DNA of 64,000 nt. It comes from a virus. Shown one piece after another: positions 11,724 through 33,931 of this stretch (positions within the stretch are counted from its first letter, which is position 1; every line of letters begins with the position of its first letter). The stretch is taken from the IMG/VR virus record IMGVR_UViG_3300037511_000125, positions 1 through 64,000 of that record; one strand, given 5' to 3'. Made by a program: the position numbers and the translations under genes. A model generated the notes under the pieces. That model did no database searches. It was not told the origin of the DNA and was given only the letters and a program-made list of their open reading frames with translations.

Positions 11724-11782
11724 AATCTTCTCAAAATCTCCTCACCGAATGAGAAGATTATGAGGAGATTATGAGGAGATTA
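11724..11782. repeat. five copies of a 10-mer TGAG(A/G)AGATT: two inverted, then three tandem at 11-bp phase
   Basis: AATCTTCTCA at 11724-33 and AATCTCCTCA at 11735-44. TGAGAAGATTA, TGAGGAGATTA and TGAGGAGATTA at 11750-82. An AT-rich block lies at 11660-11720. Confidence 0.8.
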
Positions 11783-12004
11783 CGAGTTCAGCAGCGGTCG
11801 AAACTGCCCGCACCACTGGTCCGGCGCAGTGACCGGAAACGTGCTGACCTGCATCTGTTCTTGCATGTCGTATGTCACGGTCGGCGGATTGAGGCGACAG
11901 AACCAGACTACGCTGTCGTCGCCTTCGAACATCCACCCGCAGCGACATGCCTTGCAAGTCTCTGTTGGCTCCGCAATGACCGGAATTACTTTCTTGCGTG
12001 CCAT
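11780..12004 (-). CDS. hypothetical small Cys-containing protein
   Basis: 74-aa ORF with plausible composition, co-oriented with its neighbours. Confidence 0.5.
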   Translation of the reverse strand: MARKKVIPVIAEPTETCKACRCGWMFEGDDSVVWFCRLNPPTVTYDMQEQMQVSTFPVTAPDQWCGQFRPLLNS

Positions 12005-23935: not shown

Positions 23936-24175
23936 TTAAACCGCTACAACTTTCGATTCAAGCAACTGATCCCTGGATACGCGCCCTTCAGTGAGGCTTT
24001 CGATTGCTGCAGCGTATTGCGTCTCTCCAGTCCACTCGGTTCGGGGTAACCGACCCCTCGCGATCCATTTGCGGACAGCCTGGTAGGTGACCGGCTTCTG
24101 GATCCGTTCATTGAGTTTCTTGGTGAAGGCGGTAAGTCCGCCAGCATCGCCAATTGCTATTTCGATCAGGTTCAT
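23936..24175 (-). CDS. Cro-like / YdaS-like HTH regulator
   Basis: MNLIEIAIGDAGGLTAFTKKLNERIQKPVTYQAVRKWIARGRLP is HTH-like. Divergent from the CI-like gene. Confidence 0.6.
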   Translation of the reverse strand: MNLIEIAIGDAGGLTAFTKKLNERIQKPVTYQAVRKWIARGRLPRTEWTGETQYAAAIESLTEGRVSRDQLLESKVVAV

Positions 24176-24206
24176 GGTCTCCATTCTAGAACCAAAAGTT
24201 ACTGTC

Positions 24207-24884
24207 ATGCAAGAACTGATTGTTCCTGTCGCTCCGGCGACAATGGAACCTATGGTTACTAGTGATGAAATCCGCGATTTTTCAGAGCGATTGAACTCCG
24301 CGCTCGATGCGAAGAACGATGAGCGCGTGGGTCGGCAGGCGCGCCTCGGGAAGGCGTTTGGCTTGAGTCAGAAGGCGGCGCGCAAGTGGCTTGTGGGTGA
24401 GTCCTTCCCCGAGGTGGCGAGAATGATCCAGCTCGCCAAGATGCTCGACGTCCGATTCGAGTGGCTGGCTACGGGACGCGGCCCGCGTTATTTGAATGAA
24501 GAATTAGGGTCAATCAAGCCGGATGAGTCGGTTGATCGGCCTCTTGAAAAGATCCGGCAAGTCATTGACGGCCAGCACCGTGCGTCGCGAATCAGTGATG
24601 AGGACGCGACTTTGCTTCGCGCTGCGGTGGAGTCTGTTCAGACCAATATGGCACCTACGATCCGCGCCGCCGTTTTATTAATGTTGGGTAGCCAAACGCC
24701 CGCAGAGAACCAAAAAGAGAACGCTAATCAGGTAATTGAAGGGCATGTAATTAGTTCACACTCATCGTCACGCGAGGTAAAAGGTTCTGCCAAAGACTTC
24801 GCCGGGAGCAAGATAGCCGACATTCGATCGGAGGCCGTTCCAGACGGTGAGAAGCATCATGACCAACGAAAGAAGGGAACCTGA
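24207..24884 (+). CDS. CI-like repressor (HTH, no S24 peptidase domain)
   Basis: HTH ...LGKAFGLSQKAARKWLVGESFPEVARMIQLAKMLDVRFEWLATG... No Ala-Gly or Ser-Lys autocleavage motifs are seen in the C-terminal half. Confidence 0.65.
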   Translation: MQELIVPVAPATMEPMVTSDEIRDFSERLNSALDAKNDERVGRQARLGKAFGLSQKAARKWLVGESFPEVARMIQLAKMLDVRFEWLATGRGPRYLNEELGSIKPDESVDRPLEKIRQVIDGQHRASRISDEDATLLRAAVESVQTNMAPTIRAAVLLMLGSQTPAENQKENANQVIEGHVISSHSSSREVKGSAKDFAGSKIADIRSEAVPDGEKHHDQRKKGT

Positions 24885-25101
24885 GGTCGTGAGCCTAGAT
24901 GCCTATAGAGCCATCCGCGATCACAGGTCAGCGCGATACGATCAGGAGGTAGTTACAGATGTACATTTCTCGATAACGCGTTCTGGCGCGATCCTGCCAA
25001 GTGCAGTGAAGGTGGTTGATCTGCATGTTCTGGCGGTGCTCGCGTGGAGCTTGGAGGTGTCCTCAAACATGCTCGACAATTACCTGTCTCAGACCGACTA
25101 A
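24859..25101 (+). CDS. hypothetical protein
   Basis: ATG 24859 (MTNERREPEVVSLDAYR...) overlaps the end of the repressor gene. Confidence 0.45.
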   Translation: MTNERREPEVVSLDAYRAIRDHRSARYDQEVVTDVHFSITRSGAILPSAVKVVDLHVLAVLAWSLEVSSNMLDNYLSQTD

Positions 25102-25124: not shown

Positions 25125-25149
25125 AAGCCCGCCGCGCGCGGGCTTTTTT
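25125..25149 (+). terminator. rho-independent terminator of the repressor transcript
   Basis: AAGCCCGC-cgcgc-GCGGGCTT followed by TTTT. Confidence 0.75.
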
Positions 25150-25191: not shown

Positions 25192-25231
25192 ACTTTCGGT
25201 ACTTGCGCGACGTAACCGAAAGTTCTATGAT
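25192..25231 (+). promoter_or_regulatory. operator-like palindrome overlapping a putative promoter
   Basis: ACTTTCGGTAC-N9-GTAACCGAAAGT at 25192-25223, then TATGAT at 25226-31. A possible -35 TTGCGC lies 17 nt upstream. Confidence 0.4.
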
Positions 25232-25918: not shown

Positions 25919-26641
25919 CTGTTCGTAGCAGCTTGGCCTTGAGCCAAGCTAGTGCGAATAGCACGAAGTACCGCAGTAGAACCAGATACAGGCTGCATGG
26001 CGTCAGCCTGGTAGGGCAAGTGGATCTTTAAGAATACTGGACAGCGCAGGCCGTAAGGCCAGAACACCGGAGATATTCCCTGCGCCGTATGTGCATGTGG
26101 CCGCACACGAGATAGCCGAGAGGCAGTGCCATTTCCCGAAAGGGACACCGAACACAGCAGCCGCTGGTGTAGAAAGCGGAGCGCCCGCGAACGTCGCGTG
26201 ACCTTGTGAGTCATTCGACCAAGCGGAAGGCGTGCGGGGATGGGAAAACAGACCTGAACCGCGCGCAAAGCAGTACCAGCGCACGATAAGCGCATTCGGA
26301 AGAGTGCTCTTATCGGGCCTGCTGTACTGACGAAGGACCGCTGAACTCCCTGCACTAGATGAGTATCCGCGAAACCGATCCGCCATAAGTCCTACGGGCA
26401 GGGGCAGTAGGTTAGCTGAAGTCCAGTGCATAGCAACAGCGTTCCTTCGTGAGTATTGCATACCCCCAGCGAGAGGGATGATCCGATGCATTTGCCTGCC
26501 AACGCATCGGGGACCAACTGACAGGCTACACCGGGGAGCTTCGGGCGGCTGGAGAACCGGGGATGGTGATAGCTAAACCGCCCACCTATTCACATCCGCA
26601 TTGCTATATGCAGTGCGTTTCGGACTACTACGGAGCATAAG
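25919..26641 (+). ncRNA. candidate large structured ncRNA (about 720 nt, family unknown)
   Basis: No plus-strand ORF longer than about 25 codons. Many nested helices, and GNRA tetraloops that read correctly only on the plus strand (details in findings). Confidence 0.5.
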
Positions 26642-28619: not shown

Positions 28620-29201
28620 GTGAGCGTAGATAAACGCAGCGTCCACACAGACGCACTGGCAACACTCGGAACCATCATCGACGACACACAGGCGCGTGAT
28701 GCGATTCACTTGGCTGTAGAGCCCGTGATCGCAGCGCACTTGCTGCAACCCGGCGATGACGTTGGCTTGTTGCCTGACGGCAGCGCGACCACGGACGGCG
28801 TGAAGTTGCTTGGCATCGTTGACCCGTTCCTGAAGGAGCCGGTAGGCGAGGGTGAGCGATTCTGGCTTGTCGTCTATCCGCGCCAAATCACGTCTCTGCG
28901 CCACGTGTGGGAACACGCGGATTTCCCGGCATCAGACGAAACAAAAGTCGTCGCGCGATCCAAGGATGAATCCGAGAAGTGGTTGCGGGATTTCATCGAC
29001 GGCGCTGATTGCCCCGGCTACGAAACGGTGATCGCGGCTGCATTGGATAACAGTGGCTCATGGGATCCGGAATACCTGCACTTTCGCGATCGCGATGCGC
29101 ATGGCGATATCCCGCCCGAGTTCTGGGATCACCTTGAGGTTGTAACAGGGCGCACGATTCCGCAGGAAAGCCGCGCAAAGTACTTCTCCTGCGCCTGCTA
29201 A
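28620..29201 (+). CDS. hypothetical protein
   Basis: GTG start 5 nt after the GGAGG SD. 193 aa. Confidence 0.55.
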   Translation: MSVDKRSVHTDALATLGTIIDDTQARDAIHLAVEPVIAAHLLQPGDDVGLLPDGSATTDGVKLLGIVDPFLKEPVGEGERFWLVVYPRQITSLRHVWEHADFPASDETKVVARSKDESEKWLRDFIDGADCPGYETVIAAALDNSGSWDPEYLHFRDRDAHGDIPPEFWDHLEVVTGRTIPQESRAKYFSCAC

Positions 29202-29570
29202 CGAGCAACACCGCCAGCAGCAGTCCCCAACCCGCGAGATCGAAAGGATGCAGCGGGGTAAGTTCGAGAGCGAAGGTAAATCCGGGCCGTACGGCGGGGT
29301 CCGGAGCCCTGATGGAACGGGAATACGCAGGTGGTGACTAGCGTGAGGGGTTCGCAGTGAATGGTAGCGAGCCGCAGCAAAAGTAGAGCTGGCCGGGATC
29401 ACCTCCGGCCCCGTTCCATGAGGGCGAAAAGCGGATTTCACCCAGACACCGCAGCCATTAATTTGTCGCTGGCCATAGGTGGGAAGTGAGCGGTTGAGGG
29501 TGATGGAGCGGAAGTAGCTCTCTCTACATATGCAGGTAAGCACTCCTACGGGAGGCGAACGGAGGATGTG
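29202..29570 (+). ncRNA. candidate structured ncRNA (about 370 nt, family unknown)
   Basis: ORF-free on the plus strand. A 15-bp long-range helix 29307-21/29410-24, GGCCGG/CCGGCC at 29391-96/29405-10, and CUCC-UACG-GGAG at 29544-55. Confidence 0.45.
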
Positions 29571-29741
29571 ATGGGCAAATACGCAAACCAACAGGCAGCA
29601 GCCGAACTCGAACGCCTTCAACGCAAGGCACAGGAGCGGCAGGAGCAACGGCAGCAAGTTAAGGCGCCGCCGCGCGGGTTCTCGGATTTCTATAACTGGA
29701 AACTCGACGCCGAGATTGATCGGATGCAGGGGACTTGGTGA
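29571..29741 (+). CDS. hypothetical small protein (56 aa)
   Basis: GGAGG SD 5 nt upstream. MGKYANQQAAAELERLQRKAQ... Confidence 0.4.
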   Translation: MGKYANQQAAAELERLQRKAQERQEQRQQVKAPPRGFSDFYNWKLDAEIDRMQGTW

Positions 29742-29947
29742 TGGGCCTCGTCACCTACAACACTGAAGGCGATCCGGTGGAGTCGGGCGTATATGCATGC
29801 CGCATCCCAGATTCAATTTGCGACGGGCTACTTCTTGACCGATTCCTGCTTTGGTACGACGGCGGATGGCAATACTGCGGGAGCGACCAACGCTATCGCG
29901 GCCTCGTGAAGGGATGGATCGGCCCATTGCAGCGGAGGCTTCCATGA
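29741..29947 (+). CDS. hypothetical protein
   Basis: The ATG overlaps the previous TGA. 68 aa. Confidence 0.5.
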   Translation: MGLVTYNTEGDPVESGVYACRIPDSICDGLLLDRFLLWYDGGWQYCGSDQRYRGLVKGWIGPLQRRLP

Positions 29948-30240
29948 CGCACCACTGCCACGCTAACGACTGCCCGACACAAACGCCACAAAAGCTTTTG
30001 ATGTGCCCGAAGCACTGGCGCATGGTGCCACGAGAAATGCAGGACCGCGTCTGGGCGACATTCCGCGCTCGAAGTGCAGCGCCCGGTGCGGACCCCGCAA
30101 GTTGGGGCGATTACTACGAGGCCGCTGCCGATGCCGTTGAGCACGTTGCACGGCTGGAAGGGAAGCCCACAGAAAACAGCTATCGACGCATGGTGCCGAA
30201 GTGGCGCGAACATGCCGCCCAAAAGGAGAGGACATGCTGA
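29944..30240 (+). CDS. Cys/His-rich small protein
   Basis: MTHHCHANDCPTQTPQKLLMCPKHW... Confidence 0.55.
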   Translation: MTHHCHANDCPTQTPQKLLMCPKHWRMVPREMQDRVWATFRARSAAPGADPASWGDYYEAAADAVEHVARLEGKPTENSYRRMVPKWREHAAQKERTC

Positions 30241-30424
30241 CCTACGAACGCACAGAGGATTACACCCTCTGCCTGTCCGACGAGGGCTTCGCTCGCCTCG
30301 CCACCGAAACCGCATAAAACGCCCGCACTGCAGCCCGTCATCAAATCTCCGTCGCTATCGCGTTCGGGATTGTTGCTGGGTACTTTCTTCTGCGTGAAGG
30401 GCATTCGATATTGGAGTGGTTCAA

Positions 30425-30607
30425 ATGAACATCCCGAAGAATCTTGATCTGCGCCACGTCGAAACCGCACTGGCGCCTAGCGAACGACTCGCCGCGATCA
30501 ACGAGAACAAGCGCCTGCAAGCAATCCGCGCGCTTGGCAATCGTTGGCTTCTGGCAAAGGACTATTGCAATCACTACGTGCCAATTCTCACCAAGAAGGT
30601 AGCGTGA
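30425..30607 (+). CDS. hypothetical small protein
   Basis: MNIPKNLDLRHVETALAPSERLAAINENKRLQ... Confidence 0.45.
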   Translation: MNIPKNLDLRHVETALAPSERLAAINENKRLQAIRALGNRWLLAKDYCNHYVPILTKKVA

Positions 30608-31302
30608 TGGCAAAAGAAATCATCGCGACTAGTGGTCACTCTATTCTCGTTGACGACTCGGATTTCGAGGAACTGAATAGATACAAATGGACTGTGAATA
30701 TTACGGGCCATGCGGCAAGAAAGATTCGCGTAGAAGCTTCCACGTACAAACGCATCTGGATTGGCATGCACCGCCAGATCATGGGCCTTCCTGCAGGGAC
30801 GCGGGGCAAGGATGGTCACATCGAAGTTGACCACATCAATGGCGATCGCCTTGATAACCGGCGAAGTAATCTTAGAGCTTGCACGCGACAGCAGAATGTC
30901 CTCAACAGACGGGGAAGCAGCAGAACTGGCTTTAAAGGCGTGACACAGCAAGCCAAAACAGGACTTTTTTGCGCTGAAATACGTGTCGGCGCAATCAGAA
31001 AACATCTCGGGTCTTACCAGACTGCCGAAGAGGCGCATGAGGTTTATTGCTTATGGGCCGACATGCTGCATGGCGAATTTGCGAATCATGAGCACAACCA
31101 GCAGGCAAACGCTCGTGCGCATAACGTTATTGAGAAGGTGATGCGGGAACCGAGAGTATCGCTCTCAGACGCAAATCAAATTCGCGATCTAAGAGGGACT
31201 CTTACCGTTCACGAGGTGGCGAAACGATTTGGCATAGCTGCTTCTTATGTTTATGCGATATGGAGTGGCCGTAGCAGGAAGGATACGGGGGTTAAGGCAT
31301 GA
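30607..31302 (+). CDS. HNH endonuclease with AP2 and HTH domains (homing-type)
   Basis: HIEVDHINGDRLDNRRSNLR is an HNH_3 motif. GFKGVTQ...LGSYQTAEEAHEVY is an AP2 motif. Lower GC. Confidence 0.8.
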   Translation: MAKEIIATSGHSILVDDSDFEELNRYKWTVNITGHAARKIRVEASTYKRIWIGMHRQIMGLPAGTRGKDGHIEVDHINGDRLDNRRSNLRACTRQQNVLNRRGSSRTGFKGVTQQAKTGLFCAEIRVGAIRKHLGSYQTAEEAHEVYCLWADMLHGEFANHEHNQQANARAHNVIEKVMREPRVSLSDANQIRDLRGTLTVHEVAKRFGIAASYVYAIWSGRSRKDTGVKA

Positions 31303-31583
31303 GCATCATCAACCACCCAATTCTCCTGACCGACGACTCCGGCTTCGTCTGCGAGGCCACAGTCCGAATCGAATTCGACCACACCCCATTCGAGCGAGCG
31401 ACGCGCGATTGTCCGGGTAGTGCGGAAGAGGTTCGCGTGACCCGTGCAACGGTCTTCGTCGGCAACTTCGAGCTTGGGCCGCATCCGGCGCCGCTGAACC
31501 TTTGGGAGCCGCAAGTTTGGCAACACATCAACGAGCAACGCCAGGCCGATGAACTTGATCGGGCGATGGCTAGGGCCGCTTAA
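31299..31583 (+). CDS. hypothetical protein
   Basis: 94-aa coupled ORF. Confidence 0.5.
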   Translation: MSIINHPILLTDDSGFVCEATVRIEFDHTPFERATRDCPGSAEEVRVTRATVFVGNFELGPHPAPLNLWEPQVWQHINEQRQADELDRAMARAA

Positions 31584-31597
31584 GGCGAGGGAAGAAC

Positions 31598-31897
31598 ATG
31601 AAAGTAACTGTGAAGGGTTTCATCCACGCCGAGAAAGAGCCGTGGGACGAGAAGGCGAAGTTTGCGGTCTATCCGTTCGATATGAGCAAGACAAGCCGCA
31701 ACACGGTCCTGATCAGCGAACAGGATATCGAGGTCGACGTTCCGGATGGATTCGACATCCGCCCCGGACTCGTTGAAAACCTCGAAAAGGAGAAGCAGCG
31801 CATCACGGCGGAGTTTCAGGCGCGCGTCACCGAACTCAATGGCCAGATTCAATGCCTGTTGGCTCTTGAGGGTCCTGTCAGCGAGGTGGTTGCATGA
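31598..31897 (+). CDS. hypothetical protein
   Basis: 99-aa ORF. Confidence 0.55.
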   Translation: MKVTVKGFIHAEKEPWDEKAKFAVYPFDMSKTSRNTVLISEQDIEVDVPDGFDIRPGLVENLEKEKQRITAEFQARVTELNGQIQCLLALEGPVSEVVA

Positions 31898-32262
31898 CCA
31901 CCGAAACCAAGCCTCTGTCCTGCATCGTCATCAAAGACCTTGGGCGCTACAACTTCGCATCCAACGAGAAGCAATGGAACGTTCAGGTTCTCATGCCTGA
32001 CGGCAAGTGGCTATCCGAGAAGTGGAATGAAGACGACGAACCCGCAATCGAAGGGGAGCCGCCGAGCGAAGTCATTGCGATGATTGAGGCGAGGATCAAG
32101 TCCTATTGGATTTGCACGCGACGCGAAGAAACACTGGCCCGCATCGAAAGCTTCCGCCACATGTTCCCGCAAATGGATGACGCATGGGCGCGCAAGCAGA
32201 TCGAATCGCTTGAGTGGCGGATTTCGTCGCTGCGGGATTATCTGATTGAGGAAGAAGAATGA
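31894..32262 (+). CDS. hypothetical protein
   Basis: 122-aa coupled ORF. Confidence 0.55.
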   Translation: MTTETKPLSCIVIKDLGRYNFASNEKQWNVQVLMPDGKWLSEKWNEDDEPAIEGEPPSEVIAMIEARIKSYWICTRREETLARIESFRHMFPQMDDAWARKQIESLEWRISSLRDYLIEEEE

Positions 32263-33278
32263 GCAACGCGCTCCAAGTCATCACCAACGAGATTTACGGC
32301 GTTCGAACCAGTTTCGAGGCCGTAAGTGTTGACCGCTCAATAAACTTTGAGCGGGAAGCCGGATTCGCGATCCAGATGATTTCCGGCAACGACTACGCGC
32401 TCACGCAGGCGATGAACAACAAGCAGTCTGTCATCGACGCTGTGACGAACGTTGCCGCCATCGGGATCAGCCTGAACCCGGCCAAGAAGCAAGCCTATCT
32501 CGTTCCGCGCAAGGGCAAGATTTGCTTGGACATCAGTTACATGGGCTTGATCGACCTCGCCATTCAGGACGGCGGGATCAAGTGGGCGCAGGCGCAACTG
32601 GTGTACGAGAAAGACACGTTCGCGCTCAACGGCATGGATAAATTACCGCTGCACCAGTTCAACCCGTTCGCGAAGGATCGCGGGGAGATCGTAGGTGTGT
32701 ACGTGGTCGTGAAGACGGCTGACGGCGAGTATCTGACGCACACGATGGATATCGATGCGGCCTACGCGATCCGCGACCGCTCTGAATCGTGGAAGCGGAA
32801 CCAACCCGGCAAGCGCGGACCGTGGGAAACCGATCCCGGCGAGATGATCAAGAAAACGTGCGTGAAGCAAGCGTACAAGTATTGGCCGAAGACCGATAGG
32901 CTGAACAAGGCAATCCATTTTCTTGACACCGAAGGCGGGGAGGGTGTCGAGCCGATCCAGCAGCGCAACGAATGCCCCTCTGATCTGCTCACCGCATGGT
33001 GTGACAAGGCGAAGACCGCGCCGAACGCCGACGCGCTCAGCAAAGTCTGGACGGATGGCCTTGCAGTCATCAAGCCGACCAAGGACATGCGTGCTTACAA
33101 CACGTTCAAGGAAACAGTTTCCGCGCGTGGCAATGAGTTGAAGAAGCCGGCCGCCGCCGATGCCAACACGATCGACGTGCAGGCAAAGGAAGTGCCGAGC
33201 CGCGAACCCGGTTCGGATGACGCAGAGTTGCAGGCAGATTTTGAACGCCAGATGGCGAAAGAAGGGGCGTCGCAATGA
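32259..33278 (+). CDS. recT: RecT-family single-strand annealing protein
   Basis: ...[36 protein letters not shown]... is the RecT core. Confidence 0.85.
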
Positions 33279-33931
33279 TCCTTATCGAGGCGATCCAGGG
33301 CACCCAGGAATGGTTGCAGGCTCGAAGTGGCGTGATTACCGCGTCGCGCATCTCCGACGCAATCTCGGTGCTTCAACGGAAATCAGGCTCAAAGAATCCG
33401 GGCGATCCGACAAACGAGTCGGATAAGTATGCGTACGAGGTCGCTTTTGAGCGCATCAGCGGTGTCCCCTATGCTGCGCCCATCAAAGCATTCACACTCG
33501 AGCGTGGGCACACCTTGGAGCCCGTCGCGCGGATGCTGTACGAGGAACGCACCGGCAATCTCGCAATGGAGTCGGGCATCGTTCTGTCCGACGACCGAAA
33601 GTTCGGGTACTCAACGGACGGGTTCCTGAACGACGATCGCGGCATCATCGAAATCAAATGCCCGGTTGATACGGTCAAGATCATGGACATGCTTACGACT
33701 GGCGACACGTCGGAGTACGACCATCAGATCCAGTTCGGACTTTTCCTGACTGGCCGCGCTTACTGCGATTTCATCCAGTACGTGCCGGCACTCGAATCCG
33801 TTGGCCGCGACCTCTACGTCAAGCGCATTGAACGCAATGAGGAGTTTATCGAGGACATGGTTGCCAAGGTTCTCACGTTCGAAAAGCGCGTGACTGCATA
33901 CGAAACGTTGCTGCGAAAGCAAGCCGCCTAA
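33275..33931 (+). CDS. YqaJ/lambda-Exo-like 5'-3' exonuclease
   Basis: GTQEWLQARSGVITASRISDA... and ...IIEIKCP... are PD-(D/E)XK motifs. Coupled to recT. Confidence 0.8.
   Translation: MILIEAIQGTQEWLQARSGVITASRISDAISVLQRKSGSKNPGDPTNESDKYAYEVAFERISGVPYAAPIKAFTLERGHTLEPVARMLYEERTGNLAMESGIVLSDDRKFGYSTDGFLNDDRGIIEIKCPVDTVKIMDMLTTGDTSEYDHQIQFGLFLTGRAYCDFIQYVPALESVGRDLYVKRIERNEEFIEDMVAKVLTFEKRVTAYETLLRKQAA

Follow-up and report, generated by a model that had tools for sequence, protein, structure and literature searches.

Post-transcriptional control in the early operons of temperate phages is described in detail for only a few coliphages, and these operons are dense with tiny genes of undefined role. 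The structured RNAs that come closest to the one reported here fall into a few groups. A nut site consists of a boxA (CGCUCUUA/GCUCUUUAACA) beside a short boxB hairpin. The lambda N leader combines nutL with an RNase III-sensitive structure, and the lambda cIII mRNA forms alternative structures. The early RNase III sites of T7 (R0.3-R1.3) are irregular hairpins between cistrons that keep an internal mismatch or loop. The put RNA of phage HK022 is about 70 nt long, has two stem-loops with a triplex in stem I, and acts in cis (PMC9378689). It occurs as two similar copies, putL and putR, shortly 3' of the PL and PR early promoters (PMC9378689).

The segment considered here occupies positions 29202-29570 of the window, by which we mean the whole 64-kb stretch of viral DNA that was analysed. 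It is a conserved folded RNA of a new family without an Rfam match, and a candidate regulatory RNA. The original prediction of a structured noncoding element was borne out: in the homologues compensatory changes accompany the conservation of the main helix and of several more, and no small conserved peptide is encoded. Two of its features had to be redrawn. What is conserved is less than the full 370 nt, namely a tandem hairpin of some 60 nt with optional modules, and the element is tied not to the operon but to the gene downstream.

Locus and architecture

The window is a phage-like region in which a long plus-strand run of small genes follows an intrinsic terminator (Table 1). All genes that flank the element are on the plus strand. 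The upstream gene matches PHROG 11912; it is a variable neighbour and lies outside the element. Two side observations concern the window at large. About 60 nt past the terminator there is a TTGCGC-N17-TATGAT sequence (25203-25231), spotted by eye and below the threshold of the promoter scan, which could be a candidate promoter of the operon that contains both noncoding blocks. In the minus-strand half of the window, positions 11724-11786 hold a 21-nt inverted repeat with 90% complementarity plus a tandem TGAGGAGATTA direct repeat; this could be an operator or a terminator-like site.

Table 1. Coordinates in the window of the element, its parts and the surrounding features
Feature	Position	Strand	Remarks
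HTH protein gene	24087-24884		Read as cI-like
84-aa ORF	24847-25101		Just 3' of the cI-like gene
Intrinsic terminator	25125-25145		Strong; AAGCCCGCCGCGCGCGGGCTT then a T run; 3' of the 84-aa ORF
First noncoding block	25919-26641		723 nt; no plus-strand ORF above 61 aa
Upstream gene, 193 aa	28620-29201	+	GTG start after GGAGG; stop TAA at 29199-29201
5' domain (optional)	29202-29280	+	Starts directly after the stop codon with CGAGCAAC
Hairpin Pa, outer helix	29231-35/29253-57	+	In the 5' domain
Hairpin Pa, internal loop	29236-38/29250-52	+	Conserved GAG/GCA
Hairpin Pa, inner helix	29239-41/29247-49	+	AUC/GAU
Hairpin H1	29281-29305	+	UCCGGGCC/GGUCCGGA; 9-nt loop; no spacer to H2
H2, 5' strand	29306-29321	+	GCCCUGAUGGAACGGG; CCCUGA nearly invariant across instances
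H2, variable apical insert	29322-29409	+	88 nt here; from a few nt (about 10) to about 190 elsewhere
H2, 3' strand	29410-29425	+	CCCGUUCCAUGAGGGC
Single-stranded junction	29426-29437	+	GAAAAGCGGAUU; conserved
3' domain, irregular hairpin	29438-29503	+	Pc1 at 29438-43/29498-503
3' domain, Pc2 and Pc3	29448-52/29490-94; 29455-58/29479-82	+	
3' domain, loops		+	Purine internal loop GGGAAGUGA; 20-nt apical loop
Tail	29504-29570	+	GAAGUA and pyrimidine tract GCUCUCUCUAC (29511-29527)
Tail, small hairpin	29531-33/29540-42	+	
Tail, terminal hairpin	29543-46/29551-54	+	CUCC/GGAG; loop UACG
Downstream gene, 56 aa	29571-29741	+	MGKYANQQAAAELERLQRKAQERQEQRQQVK...; SD GGAGG at 29561-65, ATG at 29571
RecT gene	32259-33278		Identified through a homologue in L053
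YqaJ-family exonuclease gene	33275-33931		Identified through a homologue in L053

The universal core, present in all 11 instances, is hairpin H1 abutting the long helix H2. H1 has 5-8 bp, and 0-1 nt separate it from H2. The long-range helix that drew attention to the segment is real; it had been described with 15 bp and has 16 when its closing G-C pair is counted (29306-21/29410-25). Its 5' strand starts with (G/A)CCCUGA in 10 of the 11 instances, and the partner strand is either UGAGGG(C/U), which gives a G.G mismatch at pair 6, or CCAGGG(U), which gives an A.C mismatch at pair 7. Every instance has one non-canonical pair near the base; in the window the G.G at pair 6 is the only mismatch of the helix. 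Above this basal segment H2 is conserved as pairing only. Its apical part is shortest in L064 and longest in L052 (about 190 nt), the total length of H2 ranges from 41 to 218 nt, and in L063 and L066 the helix is broken up by internal loops.

The other parts come and go. The 5' domain is present in the window, L052, L055, L058 and L059 and absent from L053, L054, L061, L063, L064 and L066; a further hairpin, Pb, is an optional module that the window lacks. The junction GAAA(A)(C)GCKGAU is found in 8 of 11 instances, is reduced to GAAAC in L063, and is missing from L061 and L066. The 3' hairpin domain has Pc1-Pc3 in instances of the window type and a short Pc1 in the L055 type, and is absent in L061, L063 and L066. 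In the tail, the tract GUA(A/G)C(C/U)(C/U)U aligns across all types and a CUCC...GGAG hairpin is often located at the Shine-Dalgarno sequence (SD). Between H2 and the AUG there are 31 to 145 nt, depending on the instance.

Three smaller pairings had also been proposed. GGCCGG/CCGGCC (29391-96/29405-10) is present, and is kept only in L052 and L059. The C(UACG)G hairpin exists as CUCC-UACG-GGAG at 29543-54, with a stem that five instances retain without covariation. The distal pairing GUAG 29383-86/CUAC 29524-27 is weakly supported: L052 and L059 show one compensatory change by eye (AUAG/CUAU), and the pairing lies within a part that most homologues lack.

Homologues and conservation

Eleven distinct instances of the element were collected: the window's own and those of loci L052, L053, L054, L055, L058, L059, L061, L063, L064 and L066. 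The ten beyond the window come from metagenomic phage contigs and from one Paraburkholderia dilworthii prophage (L061). A search with the upstream protein led to the viral contig L002, which is the contig of L055 and has the same gene order; its 264-nt gap holds a long helix whose arms are different in sequence yet complementary. L052, L053, L054, L055, L058 and L059 were obtained from the contigs of the 56-aa protein clusters and their members. A core covariance model (R1) detected a further instance in L061, a locus obtained through a different gene; there the element precedes a 78-aa protein that shares the N-terminus MGKxAN...ER.Q. The subfamily of this protein in turn gave L063, L064 and L066-L073, the last eight of which are identical across the compared region, and also L065, which has the gene but not the element.

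Other searches bounded this distribution. BLASTN with the element found no homologue in the phage and plasmid collections. Scans of a genome and metagenome collection for the proteins and for a 3'-domain DNA pattern returned nothing; they used exact patterns only, and the collection evidently does not include the JGI samples that hold L052 and L054. A 17-base Pa pattern occurs in 43 stretches of viral contigs, which is the count estimated for chance alone; apart from the contig of L055, none of them is element-like by nhmmer or covariance models. Within the 64-kb window the element is single copy according to two covariance models and a custom helix scan, the latter added because model R2 fails on long H2 inserts and overlooks the copy in the window itself. 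Nor was it found elsewhere in about 540 kb of other phage contigs.

Does the element belong to its operon or to one gene? The downstream neighbour is always an MGKxAN homologue of 56-78 aa. Upstream there are seven kinds of neighbour: the 193-aa gene, a 64-aa gene, an HNH-AP2 gene, an acyl-carrier (ACP)-like gene, a GP17-like gene, a 74-aa membrane-like gene and a 47-aa gene. The MGK protein is small and rich in arginine/lysine and in glutamine. Its 56-aa form is rare, with 4 clusters among 5.8 billion proteins, to which a divergent 62-78-aa subfamily can be added; it has no match in Pfam, PHROG or PADLOC, and AlphaFold predicts two helices for it at low confidence (pLDDT 62.6). In L065 (2440-2520) a 78-aa MGKxAN homologue abuts the preceding 190-aa gene with no element between them. 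The gene can thus exist without the RNA, which makes the element an accessory, as a regulator would be.

It is of note that homing-endonuclease-like genes occur around this position. The window has an HNH_3 plus AP2-domain gene at 30544-31302, 1 kb 3' of the element, and HNH_3/AP2 genes lie immediately upstream of the element in L053 (293-754) and in L063 (upstream of 2893). This suggests that free-standing endonuclease genes insert at this intergenic spot.

The case for a folded RNA is carried by the comparative analysis. In the alignment of all 11 sequences, a small sample in which several members share parts, H1 and H2 together comprise 20 pairs, 14 of them changed on both sides, and 91.7% of cells are paired. 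When the partners are slid, 29-49% are paired, and none of 500 shuffles reaches the observed value. H2 alone, with 8 distinct arm pairs, has double-sided changes at 11 of its 16 pairs and 91.4% of cells paired; again no shuffle of 500 equals it. These counts refer to trimmed H1 and H2 arms; the variable apices were cut off by hand to let MAFFT align the arms. A core alignment of 7 sequences agrees on the covariation, and RNAalifold recovers H1 and H2 de novo from the untrimmed compact members.

Individual changes show the same behaviour, and extend it from the strongly covarying H1 and H2 to the smaller helices Pa and Pc1-Pc3, which are compensated as well. H1 reads UCAGG/CCUGA in L064 (C-G to A-U), GCCCG/CGGGC in L063 and GGUCC/GGACC in L054. 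The inner helix of Pa exchanges U-A for C-G, and its outer helix has C-G, U-A and G-C versions of the same pairs. Compared with L055 and L053, Pc1 changes from CAC/GUG to GCA/UGC (UCACC/GGUGA against UGCAC/GUGCA). Compared with L054, Pc2 changes from A-U to C-G, and Pc3 from A-U to G-C and from U-G to C-G (CCAU/GUGG against CCGC/GCGG). Single-sided changes retain pairing through G-U in H2 of L058 against L061, and Pc3 of L058 has A-U for G-U.

An alternative helix, AAAUCCG (29278-84) with CGGAUUU (29432-38), would compete with H1 and can pair in most instances. It was rejected on two counts: the C-to-A change in H1 of L064 is compensated within H1 and not in CGGAU, and L061, L063 and L066 do not have the CGGAU segment. 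H1 is accordingly the conserved helix.

Conservation of a different kind is seen further 3'. Over 29426-29525, the first 100 nt from the GAAA junction and including the 3' domain hairpin, the window, L052, L058 and L059 are 97-99% identical. The adjoining gene, compared in frame for two pairs (L052 and L059), is 82-87% identical, with third positions at 72-81%, and in the same four phages the upper stem of H2 and the 5' domain vary freely. The sole explanation that we can offer for this near-identity is strong selection on nearly every base.

Could the segment instead encode a peptide? It had been described as free of plus-strand ORFs. That is right in so far as no ORF is conserved, but there is one non-conserved 42-aa ORF with an ATG start (29361-29489). 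No open frame across the element is common to all homologues on either strand. On the opposite strand, the frame that stays open through the element of the window is interrupted in L059, where one of the few substitutions creates a stop, and it is not colinear in L054, whose own open antisense frame is closed in the window.

Folding statistics of the single sequence say less. The inverted repeats listed for the window include 29306-29321/29410-29425 (16 nt, 94% complementary, 88 nt apart); of the others listed in the 64 kb, just two reach at least 90% complementarity. The minimum free energy (MFE) z-score of the segment is -2.67 on the plus strand and -2.34 on the minus strand. Taken alone these z-scores are modest, and it is the comparative evidence that is decisive.

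The strand assignment comes mainly from context. The curated helices together have 17 G-U against 6 A-C cells, but in H1 and H2 alone the two tie at about 8 each. A plus-strand RNA is indicated by the fixed orientation with respect to the operon, the abutment to the SD and the number of independent helices. We infer from these that the plus-strand RNA is the active form, and consider it very probable that the element operates at the RNA level.

The element belongs to no family in Rfam 15. With all 4227 models there were 0 matches at the gathering threshold in the whole window, no match of E<=10 inside 29202-29570 in a permissive search, and nothing on the element at E<=5 in seven homologous loci. 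Riboswitch, ribozyme, GOLLD, ROOL, HEARO and leader models were among those that failed to match.

The original prediction had also raised the possibility that the segment is related to another noncoding block of the same operon (25919-26641), or that the two are parts of one system. We found no detectable relation between them. The first block is itself strongly structured (MFE z = -3.49), with a 29-nt long-range inverted repeat at 26315-43/26437-65, and it has no Rfam match and no BLASTN match in the phage collection. The two blocks have no common sequence, and the covariance models of the second do not match the first. Nor do they appear to co-occur: by sequence search the first block was not found in L055, the sole relative with sufficient upstream context, nor in L060 and L061, both of which have the 141-aa gene that lies 3' of the first block; L061 has the core of the second. 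The first block merits separate study.

Candidate functions

What does the RNA do? The best-supported functional reading, which we hold tentatively, is that it is a modular cis-acting leader of the MGKxAN gene, in whatever form. It is based on the covariation, the lack of a conserved ORF, the synteny with the downstream gene, the accessory status seen in L065, the single copy, the near-identity of the first 100 nt from the GAAA junction, and the excess of G-U over A-C in the curated helices. The element would be transcribed within the plus-strand operon and fold into a modular leader of the gene that starts at 29571. H1 would stack straight onto the base of H2, making the tandem hairpin the invariant core, and the 5' domain, the GAAA-GCGGAU junction and the 3' domain would be accessory modules gained and lost between phages. 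The H1-H2 duplex may then serve as a recognition site for a trans-acting factor, either an RNase III-type endonuclease that cuts double strands or an RNA-binding protein with sequence specificity, and this factor would set the stability or the translation of the downstream cistron, whatever gene stands upstream. The lambda N leader, the cIII mRNA and the early RNase III sites of T7 operate in this manner. Both the action in cis and the identity of the factor are what we infer from these features. What probability remains, a minor share, goes to mechanisms outside those named in this section.

RNase III specifically is a possible candidate for the factor, on the unlikely side. Such a substrate should offer about two turns of imperfect duplex conserved in pairing over sequence, and H2 has 16 bp or more, with compensation at 11 of 16 pairs and H1 abutting. 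The interrupted H2 of L063 and L066, however, would be a poor classical RNase III substrate.

Three more specific schemes for a leader were considered. Simple masking of the SD is not supported by modelling of SD accessibility. The predicted probability that the SD is unpaired ranges from 0.05 to 0.85 across instances and is 0.74-0.82 in the window, predicted accessibility is not below that of 14 other window genes, and neither forcing H2 nor blocking either of its strands shifts it consistently. In L054, L058, L063 and L066 the SD is covered by a CUCC/GGAG hairpin; a second SD, with less predicted occlusion, exists in the window, L052 and L059. A three-part switch of SD, anti-SD and anti-anti-SD, formed by the SD, the pyrimidine tract and the GAGGG or CAGGG of the H2 3' strand, has the necessary 5-6 bp complementarity in 10 of 11 instances by eye, but it is unsupported because constrained partition-function folding has no consistent effect on the SD. 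Finally, a CsrA/Rsm leader was dismissed: GGA is in the H1 loop of only 3 of 9 loop types, and GGAU in the H2 apex is common but not universal.

The first alternative to a cis-acting leader is a noncoding RNA in its own right. It would be cut out of the operon transcript and affect a target of the host or the phage in trans, perhaps as a decoy or sponge, with the downstream gene merely co-inherited or encoding a protein partner. We regard this as unlikely. Its size of 200-475 nt, in several domains, resembles that of large noncoding RNAs, and the 97-99% identity of the first 100 nt exceeds what secondary structure needs and suggests dense contacts. Yet the universal part is only H1 and H2, about 60 nt, and L061 and L066 do without both the 3' domain and the junction. 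No promoter or terminator bracketing the element was found, and its 3' end runs into the SD of the gene.

A loop in the H2 insert also bears on action in trans. The 11-mer GGAUCACCUCC (GGATCACCTCC) at 29396-29406 is displayed in the loop of hairpin 29391-29410 and reproduces exactly the conserved 16S rRNA 3' tail with its anti-Shine-Dalgarno sequence. It is the sole exact copy in the window, and there are 0 in 73 other loci; the match is 10/11 in L052 and 9/11 in L059, so that an exact 16S-like loop, which would suit a decoy, is a property of the window's copy only. The resemblance is a post hoc observation. It enters a bolder reading, in which the tandem hairpin and the near-invariant 3' domain represent a new class of phage riboregulator that engages host machinery, with the loop at 29396-29406 as a decoy or internal anti-SD and the MGK protein as a partner. 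Possible targets would be the ribosome, a factor that binds the 16S tail, or RNA polymerase. We consider this reading quite unlikely; if the 3' domain or the 16S-tail-like loop did prove functional, the element would be of wider interest.

Processive antitermination of the put or nut type is, in our estimate, very unlikely. Here RNA polymerase would be bound by the tandem hairpin as it emerges, with or without an N-like protein that could be the MGK protein, and would be made to read through downstream terminators. The layout invites the comparison: adjacent stem-loops with a 0-1 nt spacer in an early operon resemble the two-stem, V-shaped put RNA (PMC9378689). The position of the site directly 5' of a gene for a small protein rich in arginine/lysine and glutamine likewise recalls nutL-N and putL-nun, and linkage to what lies downstream rather than upstream fits an action on downstream transcription. 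On the other hand, the site occurs only once, without a similar second one, and it lies about 4 kb into the operon rather than near a promoter. The plus strand of the element has no sequence within 2 mismatches of boxA (GCTCTTTAACA), of which there are 6 window-wide against 10.3 expected. No intrinsic terminator is predicted on the plus strand from 29570 to 32000, and H2, at 41-218 nt, differs from the compact put RNA of about 70 nt.

It is most improbable that the element acts as DNA, that is, as a protein-binding palindrome, a recombination or origin site, a mobile-element remnant or a homing-endonuclease target whose inverted repeats work as double- or single-stranded DNA while RNA folding is incidental. 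Inverted repeats do appear to covary when both arms bind the same protein, G-U and A-C tie in H1 and H2, and HNH-AP2 genes are close by, directly upstream in L053 and L063 and, in the window, 1 kb downstream. But six or more separate helices that differ in sequence each retain their pairing, the single-sided changes noted above (H2 of L058 against L061; Pc3 of L058) keep pairing through G-U, and the element is always in one orientation, right against the SD of a single gene. No direct repeats, target duplications or second copy were found. Criteria for a MITE or an attC-like element likewise point elsewhere: there is one copy per genome, always in the same orientation and position, with no flanking direct repeats.

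That the segment is a functionless GC-rich spacer that happens to fold, as the z of only -2.67, the similar value for the opposite strand and the many helices that high-GC sequence yields might suggest, is scarcely credible and already contradicted by covariation far above shuffled and slid controls, by conservation across phages with differing flanking genes, and by the nearly invariant 3' domain.

Comparison with known systems

In general plan the element is like the lambda N and cIII leaders. In each case a structured leader of at least 100 nt lies directly 5' of a small early-operon gene of a temperate phage, a long imperfect duplex is a possible RNase III target, and a single cistron within a polycistronic message is concerned. 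The element differs from them in that it has no sequence or Rfam relation, no boxA or boxB was found, it is not promoter-proximal, and occlusion of the SD is not consistently predicted.

With the RNase III sites of the T7 early region it has in common an early-operon location between cistrons, an irregular hairpin with a conserved internal mismatch, and pairing that is conserved over sequence. T7, however, has several similar sites per operon, as against a single gene-tied copy here, and the element has in addition a nearly invariant CCCUGA strand, a second hairpin and large accessory domains.

The HK022 put RNA is comparable in layout, being formed of two adjacent stem-loops of an early phage transcript (PMC9378689). 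Two abutting stem-loops are present in all 11 instances of the element. The two differ in number, place and size: there is one copy here, about 4 kb past the terminator at 25125-25145, and H2 spans 41-218 nt.

Finally, the element resembles the phage and prophage intergenic motifs of Rfam in being an orphan supported by covariation and placed 5' of a hypothetical phage gene, and differs in that none of the 4227 models matches it. As a covariation-supported modular RNA with a minimal core of H1, H2 and the CCCUGA strand, it adds to these a family absent from the catalogues, and one whose natural variants already supply the design for compensatory mutations.
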